This document shows positions 1,527 through 37,953 of a stretch of 55,460 bases of DNA, in pieces (the first letter of the stretch is position 1; the number at the start of each line of letters is the position of its first letter). The notes beneath the pieces are model-generated. The model saw nothing but the letters and a program-made list of their open reading frames with translations, was not told the origin of the DNA and made no database searches. The DNA comes from a virus (Duplodnaviria > Caudoviricetes), in IMG/VR virus record IMGVR_UViG_3300034149_000152, positions 1 through 55,460 of that record. One strand, written 5' to 3'. The translations under genes and the position numbers were made by a program.

Positions 1527-1543
1527 TGGTGGACTCGGGCTAT

Positions 1544-1578
1544 TTAGCTATGGTAGCAATGTAAGCAAACAAAGCTTA
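1544..1578. promoter_or_regulatory. Tandem operator-like palindromes (TTAGC-N7-GCAAT and TAAGC-N7-GCTTA)
   Basis: Same geometry as TTAGC-N7-GCTAA at 37968 and 50724. Lies in the intergenic region upstream of ORF 1597. Confidence 0.45.
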
Positions 1579-1596
1579 TATTAACACCTGAAGAAT

Positions 1597-1875: not shown

Positions 1876-2174
1876 GCGAACCGATCATCGTAAATCCAAC
1901 GCCCCGCCAGTCATTCCAGTCGTCGCCGGCCTTCGTAAAAGAGCATCGTGAATTGATGCAAAATCAGACATTGGTGAGGTCTGTACAATTCGCCTTGGCC
2001 CACTTTCACCGCAAGTTGTCGGATTCCCGGCCTCCGGACGGCACATCCGCCGCGATGACCTTCTTCAAGCTGCAAGGCGCCCACGAATTTCTGGACACCC
2101 TGATAAAGCTGGGCGAGCCGGATTCGGTTCAGACACAGCCCGTGGATAAAGGCCAGTTGAATTACAAGGTATGA
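1872..2174 (+). CDS. Hypothetical protein (head module)
   Basis: 100 aa, coupled by overlaps at both ends, between portal and scaffold. Confidence 0.7.
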   Translation: MSEPIIVNPTPRQSFQSSPAFVKEHRELMQNQTLVRSVQFALAHFHRKLSDSRPPDGTSAAMTFFKLQGAHEFLDTLIKLGEPDSVQTQPVDKGQLNYKV

Positions 2175-2518
2175 ATCCCAGAATTCCACTCAAAAGTGCC
2201 TTGGCCTATCCGGCTTCGTTGTGGAATTCCTTATGTTGCCGTGTTTCCGTGGGATACCTTTTGTTGCTCATCGGATTCCTAAAGCAAAGGAATCTTCAAC
2301 TTGCCAGAATAAACCAGGAACTTTCACTCAGGAAGTTTCATCTTGAGTGTGCGATTGGAAGGCTTGAGTCAGGGGAAAAACCTTCATTCACCATAAAGCA
2401 CAACGGACTTCCGATAACGATTGAGGAATTGAACCGTCAGCTTATCTTGAATCCTGTGAATCGTGTAACTGTGAAAGACGGGTTGGAAATTAACATAAAT
2501 CCTGAATATGAGCGTTGA
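2171..2518 (+). CDS. Hypothetical protein
   Basis: 115 aa, AT-richer ORF that fills the gap with overlaps at both ends. Confidence 0.5.
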   Translation: MNPRIPLKSALAYPASLWNSLCCRVSVGYLLLLIGFLKQRNLQLARINQELSLRKFHLECAIGRLESGEKPSFTIKHNGLPITIEELNRQLILNPVNRVTVKDGLEININPEYER

Positions 2519-11976: not shown

Positions 11977-11983
11977 TGTTTGC

Positions 11984-12019
11984 TTGAAATGAAGGTGGTT
12001 CAGACGCATTGTCGGGTCA
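11984..12019. promoter_or_regulatory. Overlapping divergent promoter candidates between terL and the tail genes
   Basis: Plus strand TTGAAA-N17-CATTGT-N7-ATG(12020). Minus strand TTGACC-N17-CACCTT toward terL. The -10 boxes are weak. Confidence 0.35.
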
Positions 12020-14108: not shown

Positions 14109-15602
14109 ATGGCAAATTTCCAGTGCGACATCCCGTGTATCGTCTGCGATCCGCCGATTGTGGTGGGCCAGGGATTGGCGCCGAACGATCCGAATAATCC
14201 GTTCCTGAACCTGTCCAGCGAGTTGCCCGATATTGACCTGTTCATCGGGCGACGTTACACCATAGGACTCCCGCCGCTGGGCCAGTTTTTCTACGCCGTT
14301 GGCTGCATAGGAATCTGTTTCTCCGAGGAATCGCAGGAGGACGCCGAACTATGCGCCGCGCGTCAGAATGTTCTGTGCAATTCGAGTAACTGGCCGATCT
14401 CTATACCAAATCCTGAATTTCCAGGAAGCCCCAATAATCCTCAGCCTCCCACCATTCCAAGGCCCAGAATCACCTATCTGAACACTTCGCAGTCGGCCCA
14501 ATTCGTCTGCCCGAATGGCACTGTGTTCACCTACACGACGCCCGCTGGAACATTCAGAGCACTAAGTCAGGTGGCAGCCAATGCCAAGGCATTATCCGAC
14601 GCGCAGAACAAAGCGATTTCTCATCGTATCTGTTTGGGGCCTCTTTCCGAAACCCGGGTTTGTCTTGGGTCTGTATCCGGTCTGCAACTGGCCGTTGAAA
14701 CAAATTTTGGACCATGCGAATTTACGGTGGTGGCGGAAAATCTTCCAGTGGGAATTTCAGTGGCGGATGATGGCACGAATTTCTTTCTTATCGGCGACTT
14801 CACTACCGCTGGCGACTGGACATTTACGCTTCTGGTGCTAGATCAACTCGGTAACGAGCAAACCGGCGCTTACAGCTTCACGGTGCTTGGAATCACAAAT
14901 GGCACCGCCCTGACTGATGCCGAAGTTGGCACCGCCTATTCGGAGCAATTGAATGTGGCCGGAACACTGGATGGGACTCCACAATTCACCATCGTCTCTG
15001 GCGCGCTGCCCGATGGCTTGACCTTGAACGCTTCCACCGGATTGATAAGCGGCACACCGACGACCGAGCAGGATTCCAGTTTCACAGTTCAAGTGGCGGA
15101 TGAAAGCCTGACGTGCCAGAAGGCGTTTACGATTTCAGTCGAACAGGCCGATGAGTGCCCGGACTGGTCCATGCTCGTGTGGGGCGCTCCCAGCATATTC
15201 CTGAACGGAAACGGATCGGCCTCAGCCAGTGGAGCCGGCAACACTGCCCATGCGGAATCGGATTCTGGAGTATTCGGCGGAGGAGTGGACAGCGGTTTTG
15301 CTGGAATAGTTGGGAACGTAAACTACACAGGTCCGGGATCGACCTGCTGTGTTACGGTGGCCATTTCGGGCACTCCACTTATCCCCTTCGAGAATCTTTA
15401 CAACCTTCAGATCACGCAGGATTTTGCTCCGCTTCTTTTCCTTGATGCCAGCAATCCAGCCGGGACATACTCATTTGTGGTGGCTAATTCTCCTGGTGTT
15501 TCGGCCATTGAAGTTACGCTCCTTGCCAATTCTGAAGCTAATTTTGGAAGTCCGGCTCAGAAAAATATATCCGTGGACATCACTCTGATACCTTGCCCCT
15601 GA
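14109..15602 (+). CDS. Tail protein with putative Ig (He_PIG-like) domains
   Basis: AEVGTAYSEQL...SGALPDGLTLNASTGLISGTPT...FTVQVAD. Confidence 0.7.
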   Translation: MANFQCDIPCIVCDPPIVVGQGLAPNDPNNPFLNLSSELPDIDLFIGRRYTIGLPPLGQFFYAVGCIGICFSEESQEDAELCAARQNVLCNSSNWPISIPNPEFPGSPNNPQPPTIPRPRITYLNTSQSAQFVCPNGTVFTYTTPAGTFRALSQVAANAKALSDAQNKAISHRICLGPLSETRVCLGSVSGLQLAVETNFGPCEFTVVAENLPVGISVADDGTNFFLIGDFTTAGDWTFTLLVLDQLGNEQTGAYSFTVLGITNGTALTDAEVGTAYSEQLNVAGTLDGTPQFTIVSGALPDGLTLNASTGLISGTPTTEQDSSFTVQVADESLTCQKAFTISVEQADECPDWSMLVWGAPSIFLNGNGSASASGAGNTAHAESDSGVFGGGVDSGFAGIVGNVNYTGPGSTCCVTVAISGTPLIPFENLYNLQITQDFAPLLFLDASNPAGTYSFVVANSPGVSAIEVTLLANSEANFGSPAQKNISVDITLIPCP

Positions 15603-15605
15603 TTT

Positions 15606-15650
15606 ATGAGAACCAGACTTTATGATGTTATGACCTCGCGGATGCCATCA
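15606..15650 (+). pseudogene. Orphaned duplicate 5' end of the 16225 tail gene
   Basis: RTRLYDVMTSRMPS versus RTRVYDFMVSRGPS at 16231 (10/14 aa identical). Similarity ends exactly at the HNH stop codon. Confidence 0.65.
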
Positions 15651-16109
15651 TGGGATGTGCTTCCACGATCTGTTGGTTCTGATTTTCCAGACCGTGCTTG
15701 GGTGAACCCCAAGCCTTATGGAGACGGCCAGTGTCTTATCAGAAGATTTGCGAATATCATCAATATCGGAAGGGGTAAGTTTTTTGTAATGAATTTTATC
15801 CCTACCCTTTTTCATCATGTCCTGAGAGTTGTCTTTTTTTGTTCCAAGGAACAGGTGGTTAGGGTTGCAGCACTTTGGGTTATCGCAACGGTGAAGAACA
15901 AACAGACGGTCAGGAACAGGACCATTCTCAATCTCCCATGCAACTCTTGGGGCAACTTTGGATTTTCCATCCAGCCTAAACCTTCCGTATCCCAGCGGGG
16001 ACGAGCACCCGGTCCATATCCAGCACATTTCATGGGTTCTAATTTGAACCTTGGACCAGAATCTTTTAGGCATAGGAACAAAAGTTCTCGAGTATGCTAT
16101 TTTTTGCAT
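15648..16109 (-). CDS. Free-standing HNH homing endonuclease
   Basis: RFWSKV...CWIWTG...GYGRF...RVAWEIENGPVP..LFVLHRCDNPKCCNPNHLFLGT..DN..DM..KGR, then a C-terminal HTH-like segment. Start is uncertain (16109 or 16073). Confidence 0.9.
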   Translation of the reverse strand: MQKIAYSRTFVPMPKRFWSKVQIRTHEMCWIWTGCSSPLGYGRFRLDGKSKVAPRVAWEIENGPVPDRLFVLHRCDNPKCCNPNHLFLGTKKDNSQDMMKKGRDKIHYKKLTPSDIDDIRKSSDKTLAVSIRLGVHPSTVWKIRTNRSWKHIP

Positions 16110-25822: not shown

Positions 25823-26677
25823 TCATGGTTTTCTGTTGTTAGCGCAATCCGTCGCACGCCGCTTCGATGAACAGCGCCCCGACTTGCGGCACGATTGCAT
25901 TGCCCGCGCCGCGCAGTCCATCCACGCGCGCGGGTTGTAGCCCATCAGCCAGAGGGAAAAATAAGGGTTCAGCACTAATCCTCCGCTTGCATCTTTCGCC
26001 TGTGCGTGGGTGACACATTTCGACTTCTTTGGCATCAGACCAGAAACCTGCTGCGATAGCGGTATTCCAGTGTCCTGCGGTCTTGGAGGTTTCACACCCC
26101 GACTGTGATCTTGCGCGGTCGGACTGCACCACCCGATGAGCTTCACGAGCATTGTCAGGTTTGTGATGGTCGTCATATCCCTTGGATGTCGTGCCATTCG
26201 CGCGAGGTACATGTCCAATGACTGATGTTCGCGCGAGTCCATTGCTTTTGGAGTTGGCCACCCAATAAAGCCTTTGTCTTCGATGCGGGGCGCCGACGCA
26301 CGCAGCGCACAGATCGGCAGCCCCGACGGCATATCCTGCTCCTTCCAGGTCAGTGCGTATTCCGGCGAGCCATTCACGTCCGTCAGGGCCAGCAACCTGT
26401 TCTCCAAACACCGTTGAAGGTTTGCACTCGGCGATGAGCCGATAAAAAGCGGGCCACAGGTGTCGTTCGTCGGCATGGCCTTTTCGCTGTCCAGCGCACG
26501 AAAACGGCTGACACGGACATGAGCCAGTCCAGACAGGTTCTTCGTCAGGCCATCCAGAGAGCCGGAGCGCGAGTGACCATCCGCCGATGCCGGCGAAGAA
26601 ATGGCATTGGTTGTAGTCTCGCAGTTCATCGGCTTTGACATCGCAGATGCTTCTTTCATCCACGACTCCGTTGCCAA
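25823..26677 (-). CDS. C5 methyltransferase beta chain (TRD-like region and motif IX) in an alternative frame; start uncertain
   Basis: WPTPKAMD / WCSPTAQD repeats and LNPYFSLWLMGY..W (motif IX-like) in the +1 frame inside the alpha gene. Confidence 0.7.
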   Translation of the reverse strand: MATESWMKEASAMSKPMNCETTTNAISSPASADGHSRSGSLDGLTKNLSGLAHVRVSRFRALDSEKAMPTNDTCGPLFIGSSPSANLQRCLENRLLALTDVNGSPEYALTWKEQDMPSGLPICALRASAPRIEDKGFIGWPTPKAMDSREHQSLDMYLARMARHPRDMTTITNLTMLVKLIGWCSPTAQDHSRGVKPPRPQDTGIPLSQQVSGLMPKKSKCVTHAQAKDASGGLVLNPYFSLWLMGYNPRAWMDCAARAMQSCRKSGRCSSKRRATDCANNRKP

Positions 26678-26750
26678 TTTCGCCAGCGCGGATTAGTTCC
26701 CGCAGCCATGCCGCAGCCGTCGTACTGTTTTCGTTGTAGTAGTTCATCAC
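25839..26750 (-). CDS. DNA (cytosine-5)-methyltransferase, alpha chain
   Basis: Motif I FFAGIGG, IV GSCPCQPFS, VI FGEQV, VIII APHRRQRLYWVA, X LRGAGNAIVPQV. No motif IX in this frame. Confidence 0.9.
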   Translation of the reverse strand: MMNYYNENSTTAAAWLRELIRAGEIGNGVVDERSICDVKADELRDYNQCHFFAGIGGWSLALRLSGWPDEEPVWTGSCPCQPFSCAGQRKGHADERHLWPAFYRLIAECKPSTVFGEQVAGPDGREWLAGIRTDLEGAGYAVGAADLCAACVGAPHRRQRLYWVANSKSNGLARTSVIGHVPRANGTTSKGYDDHHKPDNAREAHRVVQSDRARSQSGCETSKTAGHWNTAIAAGFWSDAKEVEMCHPRTGERCKRRISAEPLFFPLADGLQPARVDGLRGAGNAIVPQVGALFIEAACDGLR

Positions 26751-26776
26751 TCACAAATTGCGTTAACCAATGTTCG

Positions 26777-26809
26777 TTTTCTTCGATTTTCAGGATTAGT
26801 TTTATCATA
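26777..26809 (-). repeat. 33-bp direct repeat (copy 1), orphan MIKLILKIEEN gene start
   Basis: 32/33 identical to 30171-30203. Confidence 0.85.
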
Positions 26810-26836
26810 CTTGTTGTTGTTTCATGTTTTCTGTTT

Positions 26837-27667
26837 TCATGGATTCCTCCATACCAATCCTGACACGATTGAGTTGAATGACTGGCGATTGCCTCCACGC
26901 GAAACGAACTCCCGCATGTCCTTGGTCGGCAGCGTTACGGTGCAGCTTGGCACTTCCAGTAGTTCGGACAGAGCTATGGCCCCCTGTATGCCTGGATTGA
27001 CCGTAACACCGTTTATCTCTCGGTCATTGTCCACATCGGCAACGATCACGACCCGGTGAATGTTGCGCTTCTTGATGAACTCATTGAGCATGTTCACTCC
27101 GCCGCTGCAATTGAAACGGCCCACGGCATACAATCCAATGCTGATGGCAGCAGCGCAATCTGTCGGTCCCTCCGTGATTACAAGTTCAGATTGGGGATTG
27201 ATGCGCTGTGGAATGAACAAACCGTTATGGCTTCCCGGTTCGCACCATTTCCTGCCATTCTCATGGCGCAGTCGGATGCCGATGATGTAATTCAATCCAT
27301 CCCGCATCGGGAACGCCCATACGGAATGCTGCGGAGACTTGACGCAGCCTAGCATATCCAACGATTCACGGGTGACTCCCAGTGTTTTGGACAGATATTC
27401 CAGAGATCGGGTGCCGTAAAGCAGATCCCACTTTTCCAATATCAATCGGCAATTGATCGGAGATTCTTGCGGCTTGTGGTAAACCGGACGCGGCAGTGGA
27501 GTTCCATTTCTCGCGTGCAGATAGGCAGTGGAACCGTCGGCGAACGTCTTTTGACGCGGGCTGGCCACCCTCATGCAAAAAATGATGTCCGTTCCGGTCA
27601 TGCACCATGAATCCTTGTCGCAAACGGGACACGGATGCGCTTTGTTGACACGTTGGGGAGTGCTCAT
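26837..27667 (-). CDS. DNA primase (Zn-finger plus TOPRIM)
   Basis: CPVC...WC...C Zn finger and TOPRIM motifs VITEGPTD...VVIVADVD. Confidence 0.85.
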   Translation of the reverse strand: MSTPQRVNKAHPCPVCDKDSWCMTGTDIIFCMRVASPRQKTFADGSTAYLHARNGTPLPRPVYHKPQESPINCRLILEKWDLLYGTRSLEYLSKTLGVTRESLDMLGCVKSPQHSVWAFPMRDGLNYIIGIRLRHENGRKWCEPGSHNGLFIPQRINPQSELVITEGPTDCAAAISIGLYAVGRFNCSGGVNMLNEFIKKRNIHRVVIVADVDNDREINGVTVNPGIQGAIALSELLEVPSCTVTLPTKDMREFVSRGGNRQSFNSIVSGLVWRNP

Positions 27668-28017
27668 AATCGTCGATGTTCAAAGCATTCGTAACCACTC
27701 CACTTGTTAGGACTGACAACGGTTGTCCGGTTGAATTTAAGGCAACGCCCACCAATGAAAACATTTGGCTTGTGGACCACTTCTACAATTCTGCCATCCG
27801 TTCGCTTCAACTGGCTTACGGTTTCAGGCGCAAGCACTCCCCGTTGGTAGTGCTTGCAATCGTTACAGTCAGCATCAATCATCTGACAGTCGAATGCCTC
27901 TAGTTTCACGCCTTCGTCCTTGCATAACTTGTGGCAGATGAACGGAAATCCACTGTCCCCACGGTTCGACTGTCCAGAATCCACCGGGGAATCGCGTGAT
28001 GATGCCACCGCGTTCAT
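27664..28017 (-). CDS. Cys-rich hypothetical protein
   Basis: DADCNDCKHY...C...CFEHR. ATGA-coupled to the primase. Confidence 0.55.
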   Translation of the reverse strand: MNAVASSRDSPVDSGQSNRGDSGFPFICHKLCKDEGVKLEAFDCQMIDADCNDCKHYQRGVLAPETVSQLKRTDGRIVEVVHKPNVFIGGRCLKFNRTTVVSPNKWSGYECFEHRRL

Positions 28018-28120
28018 CTATCCAACTGCGGAGCGCGGCCATAGTCGGAGACAATGACGCCGAAGCAGGCGCTGCAGCGAATGACGCCATCGCGTCTTGG
28101 GTGTTATTCGGAGCGTTCAT
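27875..28120 (-). CDS. Hypothetical protein, probably truncated
   Basis: Starts within an attC-like element. Contains GGIITRFPGGFWT and overlaps the next ORF. Confidence 0.35.
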   Translation of the reverse strand: MNAPNNTQDAMASFAAAPASASLSPTMAALRSWIDERGGIITRFPGGFWTVEPWGQWISVHLPQVMQGRRRETRGIRLSDD

Positions 28121-28125
28121 TTGGC
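28059..28125 (+). repeat. attC-like palindrome
   Basis: GCCGAAG-CAGGC-GCTGCAGCGAATGACGCC ... GGTGTTATTCGGAGC-GTTC-ATTTGGC, an imperfect hairpin. Confidence 0.5.
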
Positions 28126-28388
28126 GGCACGAGTGAGATCATCACGCCTCGCAGCCGCTCCACATCAGCCAGCGTAAGATTACGAGGAAGGTCAAGGTAT
28201 GCTGTCCGGTCGCCCAGCGGGACTGGATAGCGCACCAGTGCCGCAGAACAAGGGCGCGGCACCGAATCCGCGCCCCGCTCTGCGATCAAAGTTTCAGGTT
28301 TATTCATGTGTTTCCTTGCGCTCAACGCCGAACCGGCCGGATGCTGCGAACCGGGGGTTCGCTTTTGGAGTGAGGTTTTCTTGCTCAT
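28104..28388 (-). CDS. Hypothetical protein
   Basis: C-terminal AYLDLPRNLTLADVERL motif. The N-terminus is encoded by attC-like elements. Confidence 0.5.
   Translation of the reverse strand: MSKKTSLQKRTPGSQHPAGSALSARKHMNKPETLIAERGADSVPRPCSAALVRYPVPLGDRTAYLDLPRNLTLADVERLRGVMISLVPPNERSE
28243..28295 (+). repeat. attC-like left arm (repeat of 29609-29660)
   Basis: GCAGAACAAGGGCGCGGCACCGAATCCGCGCCCCGCTC..CAAAGT versus GCCTAAACACACGCTGCACCGAATCCTCGCCCCGCTC..CAAAGT. Confidence 0.55.
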
Positions 28389-28432
28389 AAAGTCATTTGG
28401 TATTCGCGCGGTCGCTGGAGCCGGCGTTAGCG
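28327..28432 (+). repeat. attC-like palindrome
   Basis: GCCGAAC-CGGCCGG..GCGAACCG ... CGGTCGC..CCGGC-GTTAGCG. The arms pair and carry AAC/GTT cores. Confidence 0.6.
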
Positions 28433-28653
28433 TGCCTGAGATTCCAGATCATGGCGGCTTGTTCTGGCGTTTCGCGCCATCCTTGTCTCGCATGGCATCG
28501 CAAGCAGCGGGCACAGTAGGTTTTCTGCCATCCGAAGATGAAACTGTCATCCTCGATATATGCAGGCGCACCGCAAAATGGGCACGCCAACAATTCAGTG
28601 CAGGACAACCAAGCTAGTGCTGCTAGCTTCGTTGTGAGCGTGTTCGTTTTCAT
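28393..28653 (-). CDS. Lar-family restriction alleviation protein
   Basis: LLACPFCG...CLRC...EQAAMIWNLR, the typical Lar-family pattern. Confidence 0.7.
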   Translation of the reverse strand: MKTNTLTTKLAALAWLSCTELLACPFCGAPAYIEDDSFIFGWQKTYCARCLRCHARQGWRETPEQAAMIWNLRHANAGSSDRANTK

Positions 28654-28961
28654 AGGTCTTTTTGCTTTTGGTCGCACTCGGTTTTACCCGCCGAGTGCCT
28701 GACTTCACCGTTAGGCGGCATCGTGCGCTCCACTCCGAAACGCAGCGGCCCGATGAAGACGTTCACAAATATCATGTTGCCATCATTCATCCAGTTTCGC
28801 GTGGCCAGCCAGTTCACGCCGGCCATCCACTGGCTCATTGTGAGAGCGATTTCAACAGCGCACGCACTGGACAGGTCGATGCGTTTACACCACGACCACG
28901 GCTTAGGTTCGCGGCCAGTCGTTGAGCCAGTGTCGTTGGCGTATTCGATTTTCCATTTCAT
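28650..28961 (-). CDS. Hypothetical protein
   Basis: 103 aa, ending PPNGEVRHSAG (attC-like arm). Confidence 0.5.
   Translation of the reverse strand: MKWKIEYANDTGSTTGREPKPWSWCKRIDLSSACAVEIALTMSQWMAGVNWLATRNWMNDGNMIFVNVFIGPLRFGVERTMPPNGEVRHSAGKTECDQKQKDL
28670..28716 (+). repeat. attC-like element (right arm plus hairpin)
   Basis: GCACTCGG/CCGAGTGC stem, then CTGACTTCACC-GTTAGGC. Confidence 0.45.
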
Positions 28962-28969
28962 AGTTTTGT

Positions 28970-29404
28970 TCAGTTCGGCGAATACGTCCCGCCACTGCGT
29001 TTTGCTATCGCTTCACCGAGGTCGTGCAGTTCGTCACACGTTAGATGTCGGAGCGCGTTCACCAGTATCCATGCCACGCCACCGGCTGCGTGAAGTCGGC
29101 TCTCGTCTGCCACGCACGCGATTGTATTCAGTTCGTCATCCAGCAGCGTCAGTGCGTGGTTTCTGATCATGTGCTCAAAGAGCGGATACCACGTCGAACC
29201 ATGACTTTTCTCATTCGGTGTCATTTCAACACCAGCGTCATTGTTTTGCCTGAAGTTTTTGGTTGCAGAGTTACCTGCGAAGTCTGCAATAATCCGGACG
29301 ATTTCTTTTACCCGTTCCGGTGTGTCGTCCCATTCCAGTGTGAGCCCGTCAGTTTTGAAACCGACGCGGACGAGCCGAACCTGGGTTGAGGTTTCAGGGT
29401 TCAT
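28970..29404 (-). CDS. Hypothetical protein (possibly fused small genes)
   Basis: 144 aa, ending in CCGAAC-TGA. Confidence 0.5.
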   Translation of the reverse strand: MNPETSTQVRLVRVGFKTDGLTLEWDDTPERVKEIVRIIADFAGNSATKNFRQNNDAGVEMTPNEKSHGSTWYPLFEHMIRNHALTLLDDELNTIACVADESRLHAAGGVAWILVNALRHLTCDELHDLGEAIAKRSGGTYSPN

Positions 29405-29408
29405 GGTT

Positions 29409-29930
29409 TCAGTGCTCGGGCCGGAGCGACTTCGCCAGTAGCGTTTCCAGTTCTACGGCGAGCTTCACCACTTCTGCGTTGTGAGTTTCCGCGCCGCAGT
29501 CACACTCTTTCGGGATTTCGCGGGAACAGCCATCTCGTGAGAGTGGGCAGCCATACCAGTTATCTTCGTCGCAGTTGTAGTGTTCGCGCTTTGCAAGTTC
29601 GACCAGTCGCCTAAACACACGCTGCACCGAATCCTCGCCCCGCTCGACGCTCAAAGTCTCTTGGTCACTCCTAGATTGGGACACCAAGTTTCCCCAGCCT
29701 TCCGACGGTCTGTAAGAGGTTTCGCCGAACTTCCACTCACGAGTAGCTTCGACGAGTTCGCGACGGCCTTCGGTCATCGCCTCGCCTTCTTCGGAATCAA
29801 GATCAATCTCATCCTCAAGTTCCACGATAAGCATGTTGATTGTTTTCTGCGTCTCATTTGCAAAGTTACCAACCGGCTTTAGGGCTTTAAGGGCAGTGAT
29901 TTCTTTGTCTATTTTTTCCTTCGTTCTCAT
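29409..29930 (-). CDS. Hypothetical protein (fusion of two small genes through an attC-like arm)
   Basis: Internal TLSVERGEDSVQRVFRRL is encoded by the 29609-29660 repeat. Confidence 0.55.
   Translation of the reverse strand: MRTKEKIDKEITALKALKPVGNFANETQKTINMLIVELEDEIDLDSEEGEAMTEGRRELVEATREWKFGETSYRPSEGWGNLVSQSRSDQETLSVERGEDSVQRVFRRLVELAKREHYNCDEDNWYGCPLSRDGCSREIPKECDCGAETHNAEVVKLAVELETLLAKSLRPEH
29609..29660 (+). repeat. attC-like left arm
   Basis: GCCTAAAC-ACAC-GCTGCACCGAATCC, a repeat of 28243-28295. Confidence 0.55.
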
Positions 29931-30202
29931 CGTGTTGTTCCTTTGGTTGAGCGCCCCTCCAATGTTTCAGGTGAGTCATCCGGGCGAAGATTTAGTTTGT
30001 GTTCAGCTTCTTCGCCTATGAGCGTTTTCCCGCCTCCCAGTTCATGCAGCCGCTTCGATTCATTGATTGCTGCTTCGCGGATTGCCTGCAGGAAGATTCC
30101 AAGTTTCTTTTCTTCGGATTCCACCGGCTCGTGTCTTTCCGTCTCGTCGTATATGCACACGCCTTTGTCATTTTCTTCGATTTTCAGGATGAGTTTTATC
30201 AT
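29927..30202 (-). CDS. Hypothetical protein
   Basis: 91 aa, MIKLILKIEEN..., ATGA-coupled downstream. Confidence 0.6.
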   Translation of the reverse strand: MIKLILKIEENDKGVCIYDETERHEPVESEEKKLGIFLQAIREAAINESKRLHELGGGKTLIGEEAEHKLNLRPDDSPETLEGRSTKGTTR

Positions 30203-30203
30203 A
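30171..30203 (-). repeat. 33-bp direct repeat (copy 2)
   Basis: 32/33 identical to 26777-26809. Confidence 0.85.
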
Positions 30204-30251
30204 GGTCGTTGTCGAAGAGCGAACTGCCGCCCCGCGTTTCATTTGGTTAGT

Positions 30252-30470
30252 TTAATCGGCCTCTGTCCACACAATACGCCGCTCCGTCGTGTCATATACA
30301 TGCGCCCAAGAGGAGCGCCATAGTTCAGACAAATCGTCTCCGTTTTCCATTTTCGCGTGCGCCACGACTGCCTGGATAGCCTCAGAGAGTGAGTCGAAGT
30401 CGGCATGGAAGTCGTACATACCGCCGGCTGGGTAGTAAATTGAGCCTTCAAATGTCAGAAATCGTTTCAT
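30252..30470 (-). CDS. Small phage hypothetical protein
   Basis: MKRFLTF...YYPAGG..DF...FDS pattern seen in small phage early proteins. Confidence 0.7.
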   Translation of the reverse strand: MKRFLTFEGSIYYPAGGMYDFHADFDSLSEAIQAVVAHAKMENGDDLSELWRSSWAHVYDTTERRIVWTEAD

Positions 30471-30489
30471 AGTAACATGCTAGGCGACT

Positions 30490-30789
30490 TCATGCGTGTC
30501 CCCTCACCACTTCCGGGTAGTTGTAGATTGGCATGGATTTCTCTGCCCACTCCCAGAACTCACGGTGGCTGTCCTTCGTCGCCTCCTGAGAGTACGCGGT
30601 AGGCACATGCGGTTGGTCATACCACGGCCCGTCATTCAGTTTCAGGTGGAGATGCAGGCAGTGCTTGCCGCTGCGCTCATGGAACATCCGCACCAGGCAC
30701 AGACCTTTTGGGACTTGAGACCAGTCGGCTAACCATGCTTTGCAGCGAACGGCCTTCCCGCTTTCCGATTCGATGCTTTCAGGTTTCAT
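30490..30789 (-). CDS. Hypothetical protein
   Basis: Start MKPES lies inside the 30727-30812 element. Confidence 0.5.
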   Translation of the reverse strand: MKPESIESESGKAVRCKAWLADWSQVPKGLCLVRMFHERSGKHCLHLHLKLNDGPWYDQPHVPTAYSQEATKDSHREFWEWAEKSMPIYNYPEVVRGHA

Positions 30790-30812
30790 TGCGTCTCTTT
30801 GGGTGGTTAGGT
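30727..30812 (+). repeat. attC-like element
   Basis: GGCTAAC-CATGC-TTTGCAGCGAAC ... TG-GTTAGGT, with RYYYAAC/GTTRRRY-like cores. Confidence 0.6.
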
Positions 30813-31066
30813 GTGCTCGCCGTCTCACCATGAACGCACCCAAATTCAGGGCCGGTTTCTATCGCCCCATAGCCGTCATCAACTCCTGCCGTTTCGTCAT
30901 ACGGAGGCAGTCCGTTATTTCTGAGTTTCGGATTATTGCATGGCCGATGCGAACTTCTGCCTCTTGGTGATTCTGCATCCCACCATTGACACGCGGCACA
31001 CCTAATAATTCGATGGATCGAACTGCGTCCCGCCACGGGTTGGATTGCAAATGTGTCGTTTGGCAT
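30779..31066 (-). CDS. Small Cys-containing hypothetical protein
   Basis: CAACQWW...C...TGPEFGCVH. Confidence 0.65.
   Translation of the reverse strand: MPNDTFAIQPVAGRSSIHRIIRCAACQWWDAESPRGRSSHRPCNNPKLRNNGLPPYDETAGVDDGYGAIETGPEFGCVHGETASTPNHPKRRNET
31000..31064 (+). repeat. attC-like element
   Basis: ACCTAAT-AATTC-GATGGATCGAAC ... GTC-GTTTGGC. Confidence 0.45.
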
Positions 31067-31069
31067 ATT

Positions 31070-34000
31070 TCAGAATGGCGCGATCTCGGTTTCTGCGGAT
31101 TGGATTGGCGCCAGCGGTCTTTTCCATCCGTTGGAGGACAGCTTATCCAGCAAAGTCCTGGCGGTGGCGGATGTCATGTTGGCGTCGGTATAACCGTACC
31201 GTCGCAATACCTTCAATTGACCAAGTGTAGCCAGCTTATTGCCCCAACGCCGGAACATCTCGTTCAATACCTGCTTGGACTGTGCATACGGCATTACTTC
31301 GGGATTGATTCCCTGCTTTAAGAGCAGGGCCTTTTGCTTTTGAGAAAGCGATTTGCCATTGTCCCATCCTCTCTCCTTGACGGGCGTCATTTGGAATATG
31401 TCGAACGGGTTTACCATTCTGCTGGTGTAGCTTGACCGGGCGATCAGCCTTGCCTTCCGGGCTTCCTCCAGCCGGCGACGTTCTGCGGCTTCCTTTATTA
31501 ACTTTTCCTCCTGTTCGTCGAGCAGACCGGCCATTCTGACAGCGCAGCCTTTTTCCGTGGCAATCTTAACCGCCCGATCACAGGCTTCATCGCTGACTTT
31601 TCCGCCCAGAATATCAGCCGAAGTCATCAACTTATGCCGGCCACTGTTGCCGACGAAATCCAAGGCAATCATTGAAGGTTTGCCGCTGGCGGCGATGCAA
31701 GCCTTGCGATCATCGGCGGTGGTCTGGCCATCCACCACTCCGGCCAGTGGCCGCATGGCCCGCCCTAAAATTTGTGCATACAAAGACCGGCTCTTGGTTG
31801 GGCGCGCATTAACCACCACTTCGACGAGAGGGTTGTCGTAACCCTCGGAATTGCCAACCACGGTGACAGTTCCTCGTCGCCGAACAATTATGTTTCCGCT
31901 TGTGCTCGTCACACACCACACACGCTCAGGACTCCATCCTTCCTCGATACGGAGGCGGTATTTCGTCATCATGTGTGCTTCGCGCTTTGTGAAGGATAAG
32001 AACCAAAGCCAATGCTTTCCGTTTGGTCTCTTTATCAGGCTGGTCCGGTATCCCCGCACGCAGGCAATTGCTTGCAGCAACGAGAATAATTGCGGCCTCG
32101 CTCCGCAAATACGAATCAGGGGGGTCGGGGGACGCATGTTATTCCCATGGTCTCCGTCGGCCATCCAGTACCCATTAAGCAGGGCGTCAAATTGGCGGCC
32201 ATTGAGTCCCCAAAGCAGATCAGAGCCGTGCTTTTGGAGATAAGGTTCAAGCGCAAAGACTCCGCACCTTTTTTGCGAACCGAATCCAGTACCCCTTGGC
32301 AATGACCACACAACGACTTTGCTTTCTTTGTTGGGTTTGTCGGCAAAACTTCCGAGTGATGGTTTCACCCGCCGCACCGAATCAAATCCACAGGCTGCAA
32401 TTAGATCATCAACCCGCGCAACGATCTCGGAACAGTTTTCGAATTGACATAAGGTGTACTCCATACCACCGCTTTTTAGGTGCGCAACGCTTCCATCGCC
32501 AAGCCAGAACCCGATGAATTCGCATTCTTCCAGAGAGAGAGCCGCCGGGTGCTTGTATTCCAGAGAATCGCGTCTATCAATTCTTCGATTGGCCTCTGCA
32601 ATAGATTCCTCCCATTCAAATCCATTATTTTTCCGGAGCATGTGCGCATTGGCTGCGACCCGGATGCATCTGAGCCTTTTGCTTCGCCGTGGAGTTGGTA
32701 TCTCAACGGATAATGGGTCAGCCATTCCAGAAATTGGAAGGGCGGCTATTTTACCAACAAGTTCGGATGCGTGCGCCATCTTCCAATCAGACCGTGGCAC
32801 CGTTCGGTAAATCATACGATGATCCTCAGTCACGCGGATTGACCTGTTCTTGGTTTCCAAAACGACCATGCGCTCGTTTGGTAATCTGTCTCTGCGAATT
32901 ATGAACTTGGGCTTGTCGAAAAACACTTGACCATTATCCCAATTCGCAATCATGTGTTCGTAACTCATCGCCTCCATGTTCACCCAACCATCGGTGGTTA
33001 GGATTTCAGTTTGTGAATCCAGACAATAAATTCCGCAGTTACAAACTACTTGAAGCATTCCGGACTTGAATCTTGAATTGATGTCCTCGCGCACGTCGTT
33101 GCTGGTCTTGTCGCAAACCCATTCCGACATGCCTGCGCGCACACGGTTCAAGATATTAGACAGAATTTCCGCGTGTTTTACAGATGATGTGAAGCACAGG
33201 GTAATTTTCTTGCAGGTCGCATTCGCTTCAATGTACTCGCCCCACTGCAATGGATCGACTGTTTTAAGTGTGTGCTGGCCAAGACCGAATAACACTTCCA
33301 ATGTGGGTTGCACGATGCACTGCACGGCTTCCTCACTCTCCATCACTGCCGCAAGGTCCGCTCCGTTCAAATCTCCCGCCGTAGTCCGGATATGCGACCA
33401 GTCAATCGTGGTGGGGATCATCCATTGATCCACATTCAACAACCAGCCGTCATGGATGGCATCAAGTATTTCGTAATCGAAAGCAACCGTGTCGAATATC
33501 TGGCCCAGTGCCTCCTCGTCAGCCCGGTCGGGGGTTGCCGTGACCCCGAGAATTTTTATCTCCGGGTTGTTGGTCTTGTAATAATTGATGAGCGAGCGAT
33601 AGCTATCAGCGGTTCCGTGGTGGCAGTTTGAAACTACGACACCGTTTGCGATGTAGCTGTGGACCCTTTCAACTTCGAGATTGTAGACGTAACCGTCCGG
33701 ACACATTCCGCCAAATGTTCCGTCACCTGTCTGTTTTTGAATCTCAACACTGTCCACCCAAGCCCAATGAGATTGGAAGTCTTGAGCTTGTCTCTCTGTT
33801 TCACCGTTTCCGCGTAATGGCTCGGGCCGTCCACTTCGACTGCTATTTTGAGTTCTCTGTTCCCAATTGGTGCATAACACCATATCAAATCCTGTAAGTA
33901 AAGAGGCTTTTTTCCATCCGTCTTTTGTCCATATTTTGTGGTTCATGGTGCAAGTGATGATTTTTGTGCCGGCGCTGATCTGACACAGATAGTTGGAGCG

Positions 34001-34522
34001 AGGCCGGTGCTTGAAAGTTCTGAGGATACGTCGAGGTCCAAATTGATGCGTGGCTGGATCGAACGCAATAACTGTTTCACCGGCTTTGAAACTCTCAATC
34101 GGTCTGCCATCAACCCGTGTCCCAGCAGGAAAACACTCATCAACAATCAACACCCCAAATTCTTCAGGTTTGAACCGGCCCATGCGCTTGCGGTCGCCGT
34201 GGTTTGAGTTCTGGGTCTGGATGGTTGAGATTACGACCGGGGGATTTCCAAATAGCGAATTATTAACAAACAGTTCCGCCATTTCGATTCCGCATTCAAG
34301 CCCGGTTACGTGATGAATTTTCTCCCGGGCCTGCCAGATCAATTCTTTCCTTTGAGCAATTATCATCGCCCGCTTCGGTTGAACGCTGTCAATGACCATG
34401 GCAAAGAGAACGGTCTTACCGCAGCCGGTTGGGGCCACAACGAGAGTTGAGGTCACGCTTTCCCATTCCTTGAAAATGGCATCATGGGCCTCGGTCTGAT
34501 AATCGCGGGGCACGAAGTTCAT
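31070..34522 (-). CDS. SF2 DEAD/DEAH-box helicase with two inteins (about 588 aa after splicing)
   Basis: RDYQ, APTGCGKT, DE|CH, TATPDR, Y|SEGYD and QILGRAMR motifs. Confidence 0.92.
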   Translation of the reverse strand: MNFVPRDYQTEAHDAIFKEWESVTSTLVVAPTGCGKTVLFAMVIDSVQPKRAMIIAQRKELIWQAREKIHHVTGLECGIEMAELFVNNSLFGNPPVVISTIQTQNSNHGDRKRMGRFKPEEFGVLIVDECFPAGTRVDGRPIESFKAGETVIAFDPATHQFGPRRILRTFKHRPRSNYLCQISAGTKIITCTMNHKIWTKDGWKKASLLTGFDMVLCTNWEQRTQNSSRSGRPEPLRGNGETERQAQDFQSHWAWVDSVEIQKQTGDGTFGGMCPDGYVYNLEVERVHSYIANGVVVSNCHHGTADSYRSLINYYKTNNPEIKILGVTATPDRADEEALGQIFDTVAFDYEILDAIHDGWLLNVDQWMIPTTIDWSHIRTTAGDLNGADLAAVMESEEAVQCIVQPTLEVLFGLGQHTLKTVDPLQWGEYIEANATCKKITLCFTSSVKHAEILSNILNRVRAGMSEWVCDKTSNDVREDINSRFKSGMLQVVCNCGIYCLDSQTEILTTDGWVNMEAMSYEHMIANWDNGQVFFDKPKFIIRRDRLPNERMVVLETKNRSIRVTEDHRMIYRTVPRSDWKMAHASELVGKIAALPISGMADPLSVEIPTPRRSKRLRCIRVAANAHMLRKNNGFEWEESIAEANRRIDRRDSLEYKHPAALSLEECEFIGFWLGDGSVAHLKSGGMEYTLCQFENCSEIVARVDDLIAACGFDSVRRVKPSLGSFADKPNKESKVVVWSLPRGTGFGSQKRCGVFALEPYLQKHGSDLLWGLNGRQFDALLNGYWMADGDHGNNMRPPTPLIRICGARPQLFSLLQAIACVRGYRTSLIKRPNGKHWLWFLSFTKREAHMMTKYRLRIEEGWSPERVWCVTSTSGNIIVRRRGTVTVVGNSEGYDNPLVEVVVNARPTKSRSLYAQILGRAMRPLAGVVDGQTTADDRKACIAASGKPSMIALDFVGNSGRHKLMTSADILGGKVSDEACDRAVKIATEKGCAVRMAGLLDEQEEKLIKEAAERRRLEEARKARLIARSSYTSRMVNPFDIFQMTPVKERGWDNGKSLSQKQKALLLKQGINPEVMPYAQSKQVLNEMFRRWGNKLATLGQLKVLRRYGYTDANMTSATARTLLDKLSSNGWKRPLAPIQSAETEIAPF
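31850..33025 (-). mobile_element. Intein (392 aa) with in-frame LAGLIDADG endonuclease in helicase motif V
   Basis: CLDSQTEILTTDGW...VTEDHRM; FIGFWLGDG and LLNGYWMADG; VWCVT...VVGN|S. Confidence 0.92.
33626..34135 (-). mobile_element. Mini-intein (170 aa) in the helicase Walker B (DE|CHH)
   Basis: CFPAGTRVDG...TCTMNHKIWT...VYNLEVERVHSYIANGVVVSN|C. Confidence 0.92.
33634..33870 (-). pseudogene. Truncated DUF559/Vsr-like endonuclease, out of frame inside the mini-intein
   Basis: IGNRELKIAVEVDGPSH...RDKLKT..L..LGWTVLRFKN in the +1 frame. The N-terminal half is missing. Confidence 0.75.
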
Positions 34523-34729: not shown

Positions 34730-35491
34730 TTATTTTTTTGTCCTTAGCGCCTTGATTTCCACCGGGACACATCTTTCCCATTTCCATTTGCCGATTAGTC
34801 CACGGCCCTTGCACAAACGACAACCGCCTTTTTGCGCTTCCGGATGTCCCTGGCAGACTGAGCATACGGCATAAGGCATAGTGTTTTTTATGTTATGCCG
34901 CACCTTGTCCAGATCGGCGATGTTGCCGGTGATTTCCATTTCGGCAAACAGCAGGTCTTGAATCTCATTGGCCTCCTTGATCGCCTTAATGACACCGCTG
35001 ATGGCGTTCACCAATTCCTTGAGTTCATCCTTGCGCCTCCAATACTGCTGCACCTTGACCGGGATCGGATGTCCGAGATCGTCTTTTATGACTTCGACCG
35101 CATCCACAATTTTGGGCACATTGGACGATTTGGCAGCTATTTCTATGACCTTATTTGACTTTTTTTGGTCAGGTTGCTTGGACACTTGCTTGGACACAAA
35201 GTGAACATTATATTCACTCTTGGACGGCCCATCAACGACTTGTGACTCAACTGGATCTATAATGGCTTCTGATGCAATGAGCATTTTATTGGTATGCTGA
35301 GGGGTAAGTTTCAAAGACCCTCTACAGAAATCTTCCCAGCTTTGGTACTCGATCAAATAGAACTTGGATTCTTTGATTTCCTTCACCGCCGACCAGACCT
35401 TGAATCCAGCTTCAAGGTGGTCGGCAATCACCTTTTTTAGCTTTTGGTATCGCAGCCGGTCAAAGGTAGAAACTGGTTTTTCAGAATTCAT
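34730..35491 (-). CDS. Hypothetical DNA-binding protein with C-terminal Zn finger
   Basis: EIKE..FY..EYQSWEDFC N-terminal domain and CSVC...CRLCKGRG. Confidence 0.7.
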   Translation of the reverse strand: MNSEKPVSTFDRLRYQKLKKVIADHLEAGFKVWSAVKEIKESKFYLIEYQSWEDFCRGSLKLTPQHTNKMLIASEAIIDPVESQVVDGPSKSEYNVHFVSKQVSKQPDQKKSNKVIEIAAKSSNVPKIVDAVEVIKDDLGHPIPVKVQQYWRRKDELKELVNAISGVIKAIKEANEIQDLLFAEMEITGNIADLDKVRHNIKNTMPYAVCSVCQGHPEAQKGGCRLCKGRGLIGKWKWERCVPVEIKALRTKK

Positions 35492-36603
35492 TTCGCAAGA
35501 GCCAGTGAAGGTTCGTTCTTTTTCTCGTCAGTGATGCCGTCCAAAAGTTCTTTCAGTTTCGACGCGAGACCCTTCCCTTTAAGACCGGTGGCGATTCTCA
35601 CCTGCGCTTCCAGGTTCCCCTTTCTGATGTCCACGCAGGCCATAAATTGCTCGGTGGTGCCGCCAGCGGCGAGGAAACGAGAATGAAGTTCGTTGGGATT
35701 GTTTATTGAGTGCCGCGTGTTTCCCTCCTCCAAAGTCCAACCCGGAACGGACGCCGGCTCTTTGGCGATCATGGCCTTCATCTGGTTCTTACATTCCTCA
35801 AGCCACTTCATGGCGGCAGGCAGCCTTTCGCAGAACAGTGATCTTTGTTCCGGCGTCCACTCGGCCACTGGAACGGTAAGCGATGACATGGCCACCGGCA
35901 CCGATACCGCTGTCCAGTTCGCGTATTCCTTGCACGTAAAACGGGCGAGGCAGAATTTGCATTGCACGGCGCCCGCTGTCCGTTTGGCTTCTGGATCGTG
36001 TGAGCGGGTTATTCTGCTTACCATTTCGGATTGAGCTTTTTTTATGTCCGATGAGTAGTAAGGACACGGTACTGGGGAGTAAGTGACGAGTGGTTGGACA
36101 ATATACACAACCACTTCATCGAGCATCATGTAGCCGGCGGCCAACGCCACTTGATCGCGCAGTTGCAGGTTGGAAGCCACCCCGGGAACGTCTGCCGGAA
36201 GGCTCTTGTATTCGAGGATAAGACCTTTGGAGCCGTGCCGCACATTCAAATCTGGTTTACCGCTGTGAATCAGCGATTCGTCCTTGGACTTATACCAAAG
36301 CCGTTTCTCCTTGAAACGCACGGCCTGGGTGGCGTCGGGGCCGAAAGTGTCGGAGATCAAGCGGTCCCTGATTTCAACGCAGCCCTCGTAAATGGATAGC
36401 TGGTCGGGATCGAGTTTGGAGGGATCATCATTTGCGAGCGCAGCATGAACGCGCGTTCCGAACTGGCTGTCGGTGGTGCTGATGTCGGCCAGCCCGCGCT
36501 GGGCCTGATGCCGGCCTTCGCATAGCAAATCGGCTTGCGCGTTTGAGGCGGAAGTGCCCCCGCCTACTTCGTCGGCATGGGTTGGTGTTTTGTCGGTGTT
36601 CAT
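35488..36603 (-). CDS. PD-(D/E)XK / Cas4-like exonuclease (RecT partner)
   Basis: FGTRVH, SGKPD...LEYKS, QL..Q and CKFC...C. Confidence 0.75.
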   Translation of the reverse strand: MNTDKTPTHADEVGGGTSASNAQADLLCEGRHQAQRGLADISTTDSQFGTRVHAALANDDPSKLDPDQLSIYEGCVEIRDRLISDTFGPDATQAVRFKEKRLWYKSKDESLIHSGKPDLNVRHGSKGLILEYKSLPADVPGVASNLQLRDQVALAAGYMMLDEVVVYIVQPLVTYSPVPCPYYSSDIKKAQSEMVSRITRSHDPEAKRTAGAVQCKFCLARFTCKEYANWTAVSVPVAMSSLTVPVAEWTPEQRSLFCERLPAAMKWLEECKNQMKAMIAKEPASVPGWTLEEGNTRHSINNPNELHSRFLAAGGTTEQFMACVDIRKGNLEAQVRIATGLKGKGLASKLKELLDGITDEKKNEPSLALAK

Positions 36604-36782: not shown

Positions 36783-36988
36783 AATTGTTTGATAGGAACG
36801 GTTTCACCGCAGCGGGTGCAGTGGATGGATTTTACGGTTGATACTCTGGTTTTTAATCCTTCAAGCATTGAGACGCCTTCTATCTTAGCTCCCTTAAAAC
36901 CGTCTGGCAGTCTTGAACTGGTGTCGTAAACGGTGACGATGCTGTGGCCGAACAGGTAGCCATAAAGCCCGATACATTCTTTGTTCAT
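36779..36988 (-). CDS. Small Zn-binding hypothetical protein
   Basis: C...FGH...CTRCG. Confidence 0.65.
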   Translation of the reverse strand: MNKECIGLYGYLFGHSIVTVYDTSSRLPDGFKGAKIEGVSMLEGLKTRVSTVKSIHCTRCGETVPIKQL

Positions 36989-37953
36989 ACTGTCTCTTTG
37001 ATGCGTTGGGAGAATTCCTCCCAGTCTTTGATTATGGTTTGCAGCGCCACATCATTGGCCGTGTGGGCTTCCTCCAATGTCTTGATATTCTCATCCGCCA
37101 GCCCGATGGCCTGCATGAATTCGATTAAGGTTGATTCAGTAATGTTGGCGTCCTCCATCAACGCCTTCAAATCGACCAGCGCATCGGTCACTGACGGAGC
37201 CGGTGCCAATGTTTTCGGCGGCTCGACGTTGGTAACATTTCCGAAGATGGGCTTGACCGGCATTGCCGGCAGCTTGTCGGCAATGGAATCGTCATCGGCG
37301 TTGAACGCCTGCCGGATTTCCGGCGACATATCCCAGCGTTTTGAGTGACGTTTAATGACGGTTTTTTTTGCCATCTCACCCCAGGAATTTTTCCAGGGAG
37401 AAGAATCCTTCGCTTTGGAGTACCGCTGACGCACATCCTCGACCTCTTCCGCCGACATGATTTCATAGTCCACCTGGCCGTCCTTCATCACCGCCCGCGA
37501 GTAGACGGCCTGTATTTCGCCGCGCGGCGAACGGTAATCAACGCTGTGATTTATCCTCGTGCGTCCATTGCCGTCGTCCTCCTCCACTGAGAATTTGTCG
37601 GTGGAGAACACGAGCTTGGGAGTAACCAGCACGCCGGCGCGGCTGGCCAGCGAACAGATGCCCTTCACGTCGAATACGGTCTGAACATCCTTTCCGAAAG
37701 CGATCAAATGCGCTTCACGTCCATCCGGGTAGAGTCCCGCCCGGGCGCATTTGAGCAATGCAAGCAGGAAGCTCTTTGGATCCACGTTATTGAACTTGGG
37801 ATCGGAGGCGGTGCTTCGTGCAACCCGCAACAGGGCTTCAAGTGCGATTTCCTTTGGAATCACTTTGGCCACTTCTTCCTTCCATACATCACTACCAATG
37901 CAAGAAAGCACGGTGGGGGCTGATTTGATTACCGCTGTTTTTAGTTCACTCAT
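36985..37953 (-). CDS. recT: RecT-family ssDNA annealing recombinase
   Basis: SFLLALLKCARAGL.P.GREAHLIAF...KG; SPW...WGEMAKKTVIKR. Confidence 0.88.
   Translation of the reverse strand: MSELKTAVIKSAPTVLSCIGSDVWKEEVAKVIPKEIALEALLRVARSTASDPKFNNVDPKSFLLALLKCARAGLYPDGREAHLIAFGKDVQTVFDVKGICSLASRAGVLVTPKLVFSTDKFSVEEDDGNGRTRINHSVDYRSPRGEIQAVYSRAVMKDGQVDYEIMSAEEVEDVRQRYSKAKDSSPWKNSWGEMAKKTVIKRHSKRWDMSPEIRQAFNADDDSIADKLPAMPVKPIFGNVTNVEPPKTLAPAPSVTDALVDLKALMEDANITESTLIEFMQAIGLADENIKTLEEAHTANDVALQTIIKDWEEFSQRIKETV

Follow-up and report, generated by a model that had tools for sequence, protein, structure and literature searches.

The DNA analysed here, which we call the window, is the entire IMG/VR virus record IMGVR_UViG_3300034149_000152 (55,460 bp; direct terminal repeats present; completeness rating 100%), and our subject within it is a 3.4 kb stretch of tightly packed small open reading frames (ORFs) that runs on the minus strand from a helicase gene to a primase gene. 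Sequences on the opposite strand, at the junctions of these small genes, are related to attC, the cassette sites of integrons, and we consider it probable that the stretch is a decayed array of integron-type cassettes, set in mirror orientation in a phage without an integrase. The phage encodes a terminase, tail-fibre-type proteins, RecT, an exonuclease, the helicase with intein inserts, the primase and a C5 methylase, and the complete 55,460-bp record gave no match to PF00589 (tyrosine recombinase), a family matched in all 14 control genomes; this agrees with a preliminary description of the same DNA, which had listed at least seven attC-like elements here and no integron integrase. The sites, with the more worn copies that we call relics, are as follows.

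28059-28126 (+): site D, attC-derived, holding the stop of o94a (28104) and the ATG of o81 (28120)
28243-28310 (+): half site A, a 5' arm and loop, the loop containing the AAGGA ribosome-binding site and ATG 28307 of o94a
28327-28433 (+): attC-derived site with AAC and GTT kept, holding the stop of Lar (28393) and an ATG (28388)
28586-28717 (+): site E, attC-derived with AAC and GTT kept, holding the stop of o103 (28650) and the Lar starts GTG 28677 and ATG 28653
28915-28939 (+): relic F, a possible 3' half of a site, within codons 8-16 of o103 (YANDTGSTTG)
29609-29727 (+): relic B, translated throughout within o173
30727-30813 (+): site C, attC-derived, holding the stop of o95 (30779) and the ATG of o117b (30789)
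31000-31064 (+): relic G, a possible attC relic directly after the helicase stop, its gene strand encoding the o95 start (MPNDTF..RIIRC)

Two covariance models were searched, R1 built from bacterial copies alone (alignment A4, 54 copies; whole window, filters off) and R2 from 88 viral copies (alignment A6; the R1 sites at E-values (E) up to 0.001), with the window absent from both training sets and all E-values of these models to be read as rough. R2 gave four window matches, all on the plus strand and within 2.8 kb, at E 7e-5 to 0.005: site E (26.5 bits, E 7e-5), site D (26.0 bits, E 1e-4), site C (24.7 bits, E 2e-4) and site 28327-28433 (19.6 bits, E 0.005), the next-best match in the window scoring 10.7 bits at E 1. 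R1 ranked 28059-28126 first across the window (21.8 bits, E 0.001) and 30727-30813 second (14.3 bits, E 0.14). A sequence profile from bacterial copies alone placed five of its top six matches in 28-31 kb, all on the plus strand, with site D at E 3e-4, site C at E 7e-4 and sub-threshold matches at 28915-28939, 29609-29634 and 28341-28367. At E up to 0.05, R2 found no match in 21 of 22 related phage loci used as controls; the exception, L006, had itself supplied three sites to the training of R2. By these family-specific models the stretch is a cluster of attC sites lacking an integron integrase (a CALIN), with four sites at E up to 0.005 within 2.8 kb and no PF00589 match, and the bacterial-only model and profile tie 28059-28126 and 30727-30813 to sites that lie beside integron integrase genes (intI). 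The canonical cassette arrangement, an ORF on the attC top strand, is absent, the genes being on the minus strand and the sites on the plus strand.

The fainter copies score lower. Relic F reached E 1.4 in the bacterial-only profile (model positions 69-93) and relic B 9.6 bits in R2 (E 1.9; profile E 1.8), neither being significant alone; half site A had no covariance-model match, and relic G, which resembles the family consensus by eye, gave no match to R1 or R2 at E up to 10. All seven elements of the preliminary description (28059, 28243, 28327, 28670, which falls in site E, 29609, 30727 and 31000) do lie in family-related plus-strand sequence opposite to the genes, though for 31000 by eye only, and their significance holds for the four sites found by R2 but not for 28243 and 29609 taken alone. 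Among the junctions outside that set, the 49-nt gap between o72 and o91 (30204-30256, +), with its GTTAG core and L''-like box, resembles by eye another worn site of small size, and it has a weak self-match to 30744-30779.

The four supported sites are part of the coding sequence. In all four the stop codon of the upstream gene lies inside the site (30779, 28650, 28393 and 28104, in ORF coordinates), as does the start codon of an outward ORF of at least 60 codons (30789, 28677/28653, 28388 and 28120/28090). The gene ends translated in them read ..ASTPN.., ..PPNGE.., ..HANAGSSDR.. and ..PPNERSE*, where PN or AN is translated core, and the far arm is translated as the first 8-25 codons of the downstream gene, with the start in or near the loop. 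The earlier claim that the elements sit at gene junctions and encode both gene ends and gene starts is thereby upheld, and so is that of ORF fusions through elements, o173 being one. The genes and their borders are listed here in gene order.

31070-34522 (-): helicase with intein inserts, upstream border of the array
30779-31066 (-): o95, a cassette gene, 39% identical to positions 1152-1481 of virus locus L057 (E 1e-16)
30490-30789 (-): o117b, small and without known family, its start in the loop of site C
30252-30470 (-): o72, a small phage gene (phrog_1411, E 1.2e-10)
29927-30202 (-): o91, whose first 12 codons recur at 26774-26809
29409-29930 (-): o173, two gene bodies fused through relic B
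28970-29404 (-): o144, whose start, MNPET.., carries the loop motif of the attC family
28650-28961 (-): o103, ending within site E
28393-28677 (-): Lar-like restriction-alleviation gene (PF14354, E 4.4e-9; phrog_599, E 1.5e-10), starting within site E and ending within site 28327-28433
28104-28388 (-): o94a, with a likely start at ATG 28307 behind an AAGGA ribosome-binding site, ending within site D
27875-28120 (-): o81, starting within site D
27664-28017: o117a, between site D and the primase
26837-27667 (-): primase, downstream of the array

Several of these junctions are repeats of one another. Positions 28255-28295 and 29620-29660 are 85% identical over 41 nt (E 1e-6, by repeat finder and self-BLAST), as the preliminary description had proposed for its elements 28243 and 29609; 29601-29644 and 30719-30762 are 70% identical, and a weaker repeat family links 28058, 29608 and 30726. 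On the coding strand the repeats form the first codons of differing genes or lie inside o173, the same DNA being read in three frames in different copies (..DSVQRV.., ..AVRCKAWLA.. and ..SFAAAPAS..), and the 28255/29620 pair differs by two synonymous changes against five codons with replacement changes. Since the sequence persists across three reading frames and with this ratio of changes, conservation acts on the DNA and not on the protein.

These observations bear on the plainest alternative, that chance matches and ordinary paralogy of protein N-termini together produced the likeness to attC. The short motifs of the preliminary description would agree with it, as the proposed cores are not enriched (RYYYAAC 2 against 3.3 expected, GTTRRRY 7 against 3.7) and form no complementary pairs, leaving the strict core consensus at chance level, while its box GCTGCA(G/C)CGAA, searched as GCTGCASCGAA with one mismatch, stands above expectation (6 matches against 2.6) but in a number reached by 6 of 100 shuffles; most folds, too, are no better than shuffles. 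Chance and paralogy do not explain why the model matches share one strand and 2.8 kb of a 55-kb genome and are missing from 21 related loci, nor why one DNA sequence is read in three frames, and the two synonymous changes against five replaced codons argue against protein selection, so that we regard this explanation as highly improbable. At the level of triplets, AAC...GTT is present in three of the four model-supported sites and lost in 28059-28126.

The octamer GTTTCAGG occurs ten times in the window against 2.3 expected, and five of its seven plus-strand copies fall in 27821-30646 (27821, 28291, 29391, 29964 and 30639). It agrees with the conserved loop motif of the family, gives recurring M(N/K)PET gene starts on the gene strand and points to candidate junctions at 29391 and 29964 as well. 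Copies A and B yielded a 22-mer pattern, with N at the differing base, that matched exactly in two other virus contigs, L025 and L026, in the latter within a 46-bit site, and a 16-mer from these two retrieved 65 IMG/VR stretches; about 20 of the 65, representing one unrelated conserved gene, were set aside, and about 30 of the 65 hold a palindrome with a variable loop, two inverse cores, spacers, and pairing arms of which one has two extra bases. Other identities considered for the repeats were discarded: for a tRNA-like attP fragment, ARAGORN found no tRNA and the T-loop likeness was poor, and neither a Sigma-54 promoter nor a dif site fitted by eye. That they are mere shared gene 5' ends left by homologous recombination was dropped as an origin in view of the palindromic partner arm and the bacterial arrays, although exchange of shared 5' ends by homologous recombination is likely their present role.

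The same family is abundant in bacteria. At least 143 stretches of a one-genome-per-species bacterial collection contain the 22-mer of the L''-R'' arm, often in arrays spaced 400-900 bp, and the 79 matches listed comprise 66 distinct contigs, 37 of Verrucomicrobiota type and 10 of Planctomycetota type (phylum labels from the depositors' record titles). An integron integrase above the TIGR02249 cut-off was found in four of five array-bearing genomes, the fifth carrying one in two parts; none of 14 control genomes reached that cut-off. In L234 and L239 three sites each adjoin intI, divergently oriented and pointing away from it, and in L243 the sites adjoin the split intI in the same divergent arrangement. 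The structure common to the 54 bacterial copies of A4 comprises a 7-bp R box, a spacer that stays unpaired, an L box and a variable loop. Pairing extends to 95.5% of cells, with compensatory changes in seven pairs, and none of 500 shuffles attained this; shifting the partner by 1-3 columns lowers pairing to 23-41%, and one G and one A on the top-strand 5' arm stay unpaired. Of 145 cases in the bacterial arrays, 131 have a top-strand ORF that ends at the site. The family is a true attC family of integrons. A side case is a Limisphaerales contig (L242), whose eight-site array (14753-15712, -) lies ~2.5 kb from a XerC-like recombinase and topA and ~760 kb from its split intI, and at that distance counts as an attC cluster without an adjacent integron integrase.

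Intact copies occur in other virus records as well, where R1 found 88 sites at E up to 0.001 in 29 loci, at 24-100 bits (top 99.9). In L006, a primase relative, three sites (R2, 47-66 bits) lie on the strand opposite to PAPS-reductase, small zinc-ribbon genes and recT, with gene ends ..TPNDRS* and ..AMPNEKS* within the sites; in L045, whose record (57 kb) has direct terminal repeats, each of four small genes begins in the loop of one site and runs into the following site, where it ends; and in L026 a Lar gene (PF14354, E 5e-7) begins within the 46-bit site, in line with the earlier proposal that the Lar-like gene of the window is a cassette. The o95 homologue in L057 likewise starts inside an intact site, the flanking sites scoring 49.7 and 40.5 bits, and the alignment of the two proteins stops at ..ASTPN in both, after which their tails diverge; among five further loci with o95 homologues, L249 has a site right behind the gene. 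One block of 251 bp is 100% identical between L067 (1397-1647) and L075 (1370-1620) amid unrelated flanks, and on the gene strand it runs from the AAC of one core to the AAC of the next, as recombination at G|TT predicts; it consists of a site with ribosome-binding site and ATG and a 63-codon ORF whose tail varies with its neighbour. No such footprint was found for the window's own sites. Of 84 cases in virus loci, 46 follow the bacterial pattern of a top-strand ORF ending at the site, against the 131 of 145 in bacteria, and 59 have a bottom-strand ORF emerging from it, against 75 of 146 in bacteria, counts that are supportive only, because their background is high in G+C-rich DNA; a crude test of the strand of the longest open frame in virus arrays gave 9 against 8.

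PF00589 had no match in four of the five array-bearing virus records first tested. The record of L047 (L244) carries an integron integrase at 1501-2427 (-; 347 bits, above the cut-off) beside three sites in divergent arrangement, and the record of L057 (L245; 52 kb, with direct terminal repeats) an integrase-like gene at 1501-2442 (+), also beside three divergent sites, which at 231 bits is below the cut-off of 265 with integron integrase still its best-matching family. An integrase acting on phage sites could therefore have either the host or a co-infecting phage as its source, these two virus records carrying one beside their arrays.

We next consider the condition of the window sites. As single-stranded DNA, the bottom strands of intact sites from L239, L045, L006 and L067 fold into a long R/L-box hairpin, and the bottom strands of the four best window sites, which the preliminary description had wanted folded, form no such attC hairpin in any case (z -2.1, -1.4, +0.2 and +0.2). 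Site E forms two local hairpins that are not the R/L-box structure (z -2.1), in site C the R box alone is paired (z +0.2), site D reaches z +0.2 and site 28327-28433 z -1.4 (other folds -0.8/-1.2); relic B forms no hairpin, and half site A has a local 8-bp hairpin (z -2.8). In site D the L'' box agrees with the family consensus and both triplets, AAC and GTT, are lost; in site C both triplets are kept and the L box is broken. Because the hairpins are gone, the triplets of D lost, the L box of C broken and the core consensus at chance, we read the array as decayed, and capture of its genes by an integrase as probably ancestral.

The contrary view, that the array is a still active attC cluster whose cassettes are moved today by an integrase of the host or of a co-infecting phage, can point to the AAC and GTT triplets retained in 28327-28433, 28586-28717 and 30727-30813, to a consensus-type integron attC in the same sediment run (X11), to a variant strain that differs at sites D, B and C, and to the report of Qi et al. 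(2023, PMC9892861) that IntI1 recombined five of six attC sites of virulent phages with crossover at G|TT. Yet none of the four sites forms the bottom-strand R/L-box hairpin into which intact relatives fold, the L box of 30727-30813 is broken, the triplets of 28059-28126 are lost, and the breakpoints of the variant strain are not at G|TT, and we think present activity unlikely. The preliminary description had allowed for shuffling now or ancestrally, and of these the ancestral part is supported and the present one doubtful.

The population data are contigs alone. Nine sequencing runs hold at least 0.91 of its words, and three of them may be the source sample. Contigs from X10 to X12 are pieces identical to the window, from the same strain and with no structural difference, the uncovered stretches carrying no information. 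X9 holds a variant strain, in which 28073 (in site D) is joined to 27954 with 2,403 other letters between, including a 37-nt match to 29392-29428; 29573-29675 (site B) is replaced, and five changes fall in 30728-30740 (the core, spacer and L'' of site C). Two of its four breakpoints lie within relics, which make up ~12% of the stretch, an overlap that is at most suggestive. As no breakpoint lies at the crossover point, homologous exchange in the conserved arm fits X9 better than integrase action does, and the earlier expectation that gene-content breakpoints would coincide with the elements is borne out in other phage records, not at G|TT in this variant. A further X9 joint, of 30203 to 27000, was an artefact of a 36-nt repeat, which pairs 30168-30203 with 26774-26809 (94% identical, E 4e-8): the copies are the first 12 codons of o91 (MIKLILKIEEN) and, again, the start of a 51-codon ORF between primase and methylase; similarity past them ends abruptly, and a 29-mer of the repeat had no match in IMG/VR. 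A 30-mer of o94a had no match in JGI metagenome contigs, a set that near-identical records may lie outside. In X11 a contig of another organism matches the arm at 30729-30767 only and has the consensus attC letters at 30739-30740, which suggests that an integron of the attC family shares the phage's habitat, and so gives a clue to the host.

The same contigs weigh on whether a bacterial integron piece was joined into the phage contig by faulty assembly, as might happen in a record that is itself a metagenome assembly. Genes run through the sites on the phage coding strand, between helicase and primase; the nine runs hold nearly all of the stretch; contigs from X9 to X12 cover it piecewise without chimera joints, the X9 variant excepted; and the window sites are decayed where the bacterial copies are not. 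We find a chimera barely credible.

A subtler alternative is that the elements are the phage's own, RNA elements such as intercistronic hairpins or recombination linkers such as portable starts, and resemble attC by convergence. The stops, ribosome-binding sites and starts inside the repeats, the conservation of the DNA across three reading frames and the X9 breakpoints within the conserved arm would all suit such elements, as would two genes of the phage's own short-homology recombination.

35488-36603 (-): exonuclease
36985-37953 (-): RecT

It is nevertheless the sequence, and not the shape alone, that fits sites beside intI, with L'' box, spacer and cores all in agreement; R1, whose training copies are bacterial, gives intact virus copies as much as 99.9 bits, and integrase genes stand beside arrays in two virus records. 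Convergence is in our view quite improbable, and RNA or linker functions are quite plausible present roles of the repeats, not a separate origin.

The descent from attC supposed in the preliminary description therefore finds support where it had asked for it, in a covariance-model search (R1 and R2), and the bacterial-only model and profile match the window with a family that adjoins intI. Several observations weigh against a cassette array all the same. The window sites reach 20-26 bits, where the viral training copies have 24-100 bits, the relics at 28243, 28915, 29609 and 31000 are not individually significant, and the strict core consensus is unmet, with no 7-mer core pair (at least 6/7 complementary, 45-150 nt apart) in 27600-31100. 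No window cassette occurs in any bacterial integron among the loci compared, no cassette body there is common to virus and bacterium, and virus-bacterium DNA matches stop at ~180 bp, roughly one site. No site lies near the o95 homologue in L247, L248, L250 or L251, the ORF-orientation counts have their high background in G+C-rich DNA (the 75 of 146 in bacteria), and the X9 breakpoints 28073 and 29572/29676, in or near relics, are none of them at G|TT, with 27954 outside any relic.

Weighing these, we still favour a decayed mirror array. A cassette, as modelled on intact relatives and read on the gene strand, would begin at the crossover AA|C (G|TT on the top strand) and comprise a site with ribosome-binding site and ATG, the gene body and the next core, so that it would carry its own translation start and borrow its last codons and stop from its neighbour. 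An integron integrase acting in trans, from the host or an integrase-carrying co-infecting phage, would have put such cassettes in place, an action on the window array that we infer from sequence, and the sites in this phage would afterwards have lost their hairpins. Today the relics most likely serve as gene junctions and as short homologies for recombination by RecT and exonuclease, and not as integrase substrates. More tentatively, and at slightly less than even odds, phages whose hosts bear this attC family may keep a mirror-cassette pool of their own, with integrases lent by hosts or carried by phages (L244 and L245), the site giving small early or anti-defence genes a ribosome-binding site, start and leader peptide in portable form, and decayed relics driving exchange through RecT homologies.

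The setting is a variable one. Primase relatives in IMG/VR (24 loci, 28-56% identity) were found with a primase alignment, a single primase query having found none, and none of the 24 loci holds a homologue of the 11 small ORFs of the array; the gap between helicase and primase ranges from ~10 bp to 2.9 kb in 21 of the 24, a count that leaves out two loci without a helicase match and one that is cut off. Because its small ORFs lack homologues in relatives and its length varies from 10 bp to 2.9 kb, the helicase-primase junction is a hyperplastic spot. Lar (PF14354) and o72 (phrog_1411) alone among the small ORFs match known families. A distant DNA search of GenBank phages with 27500-31500 gave no match, Rfam returned nothing relevant for 26000-33000 at E up to 10, and in 26500-31500 a promoter scan found no promoter-like site and terminator-like sites numbered 3 against 6.9 expected. 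Two genes of the phage have features of their own: the helicase (31070-34522) has two inserts, at about residues 131-294 and 499-881, missing from most relatives, the first with an Intein_splicing match and seemingly shared by L004; and a 1,023-aa ORF at 9025-12096 (-), unusually long, has its terminase large subunit match confined to residues 644-974 and may contain an insert or be a fusion.

Work on integrons treats them as devices with which bacteria capture genes, and takes the sites for non-coding hairpins that follow promoterless genes. In the window, integron sites lie within a virulent-type phage, turned round and translated, and provide small early genes, the anti-restriction gene Lar among them, with stops, ribosome-binding sites, starts and leader peptides; the window is the decayed end state of such mirrored arrays, in which worn relics are still detectable. 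Should a mobile pool exist, it would offer phages a route for swapping counter-defence genes and would link phage accessory regions to integrons of poorly studied soil and sediment phyla, and the generic attC and ORF-orientation rules of integron finders would miss or misread its cassettes.

Compared with known systems, the array shares with PeSL cassettes of T4-type phages, which reportedly consist of an early promoter and stem-loop and would promote shuffling through homologous recombination, a repeated element before small early genes in a hyperplastic region, and it differs from them in its kinship to integron sites and to a site-specific recombinase, which PeSL are said to lack. With sedentary chromosomal integrons (L234, L239, L242 and L243) it has in common the L'' box, spacers, cores and loop motif and arrays of ~400-900 bp cassettes; those integrons have a top-strand ORF before the site, an intI or CALIN context and sites that fold, unlike the window with its bottom-strand genes, lack of integrase and worn sites. 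The closest counterparts are the CALINs of virulent phages, 17 attC clusters without integrase being reported among 10,705 NCBI phage genomes (Qi et al. 2023, Front Microbiol, PMC9892861), with sites of divergent direction, cassettes oriented as usual and several ORFs from one site to the next. As far as the available text of that paper goes, they resemble the window in having several attC-type sites within a few kb and no integrase in the phage, cassettes of anti-restriction type (methyltransferases there, Lar here) and an integrase supplied in trans as the proposed actor. They were found with generic attC models, unlike the window sites, which form one family, were recovered with family-specific models and are decayed; and that text has no mention of bottom-strand genes with starts and stops lying within sites, as in the window. 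We found no description of a mirrored, translated cassette layout in the literature available to us, and on that footing attC clusters in virulent phages were already known and the mirrored, translated layout is the new aspect added here.

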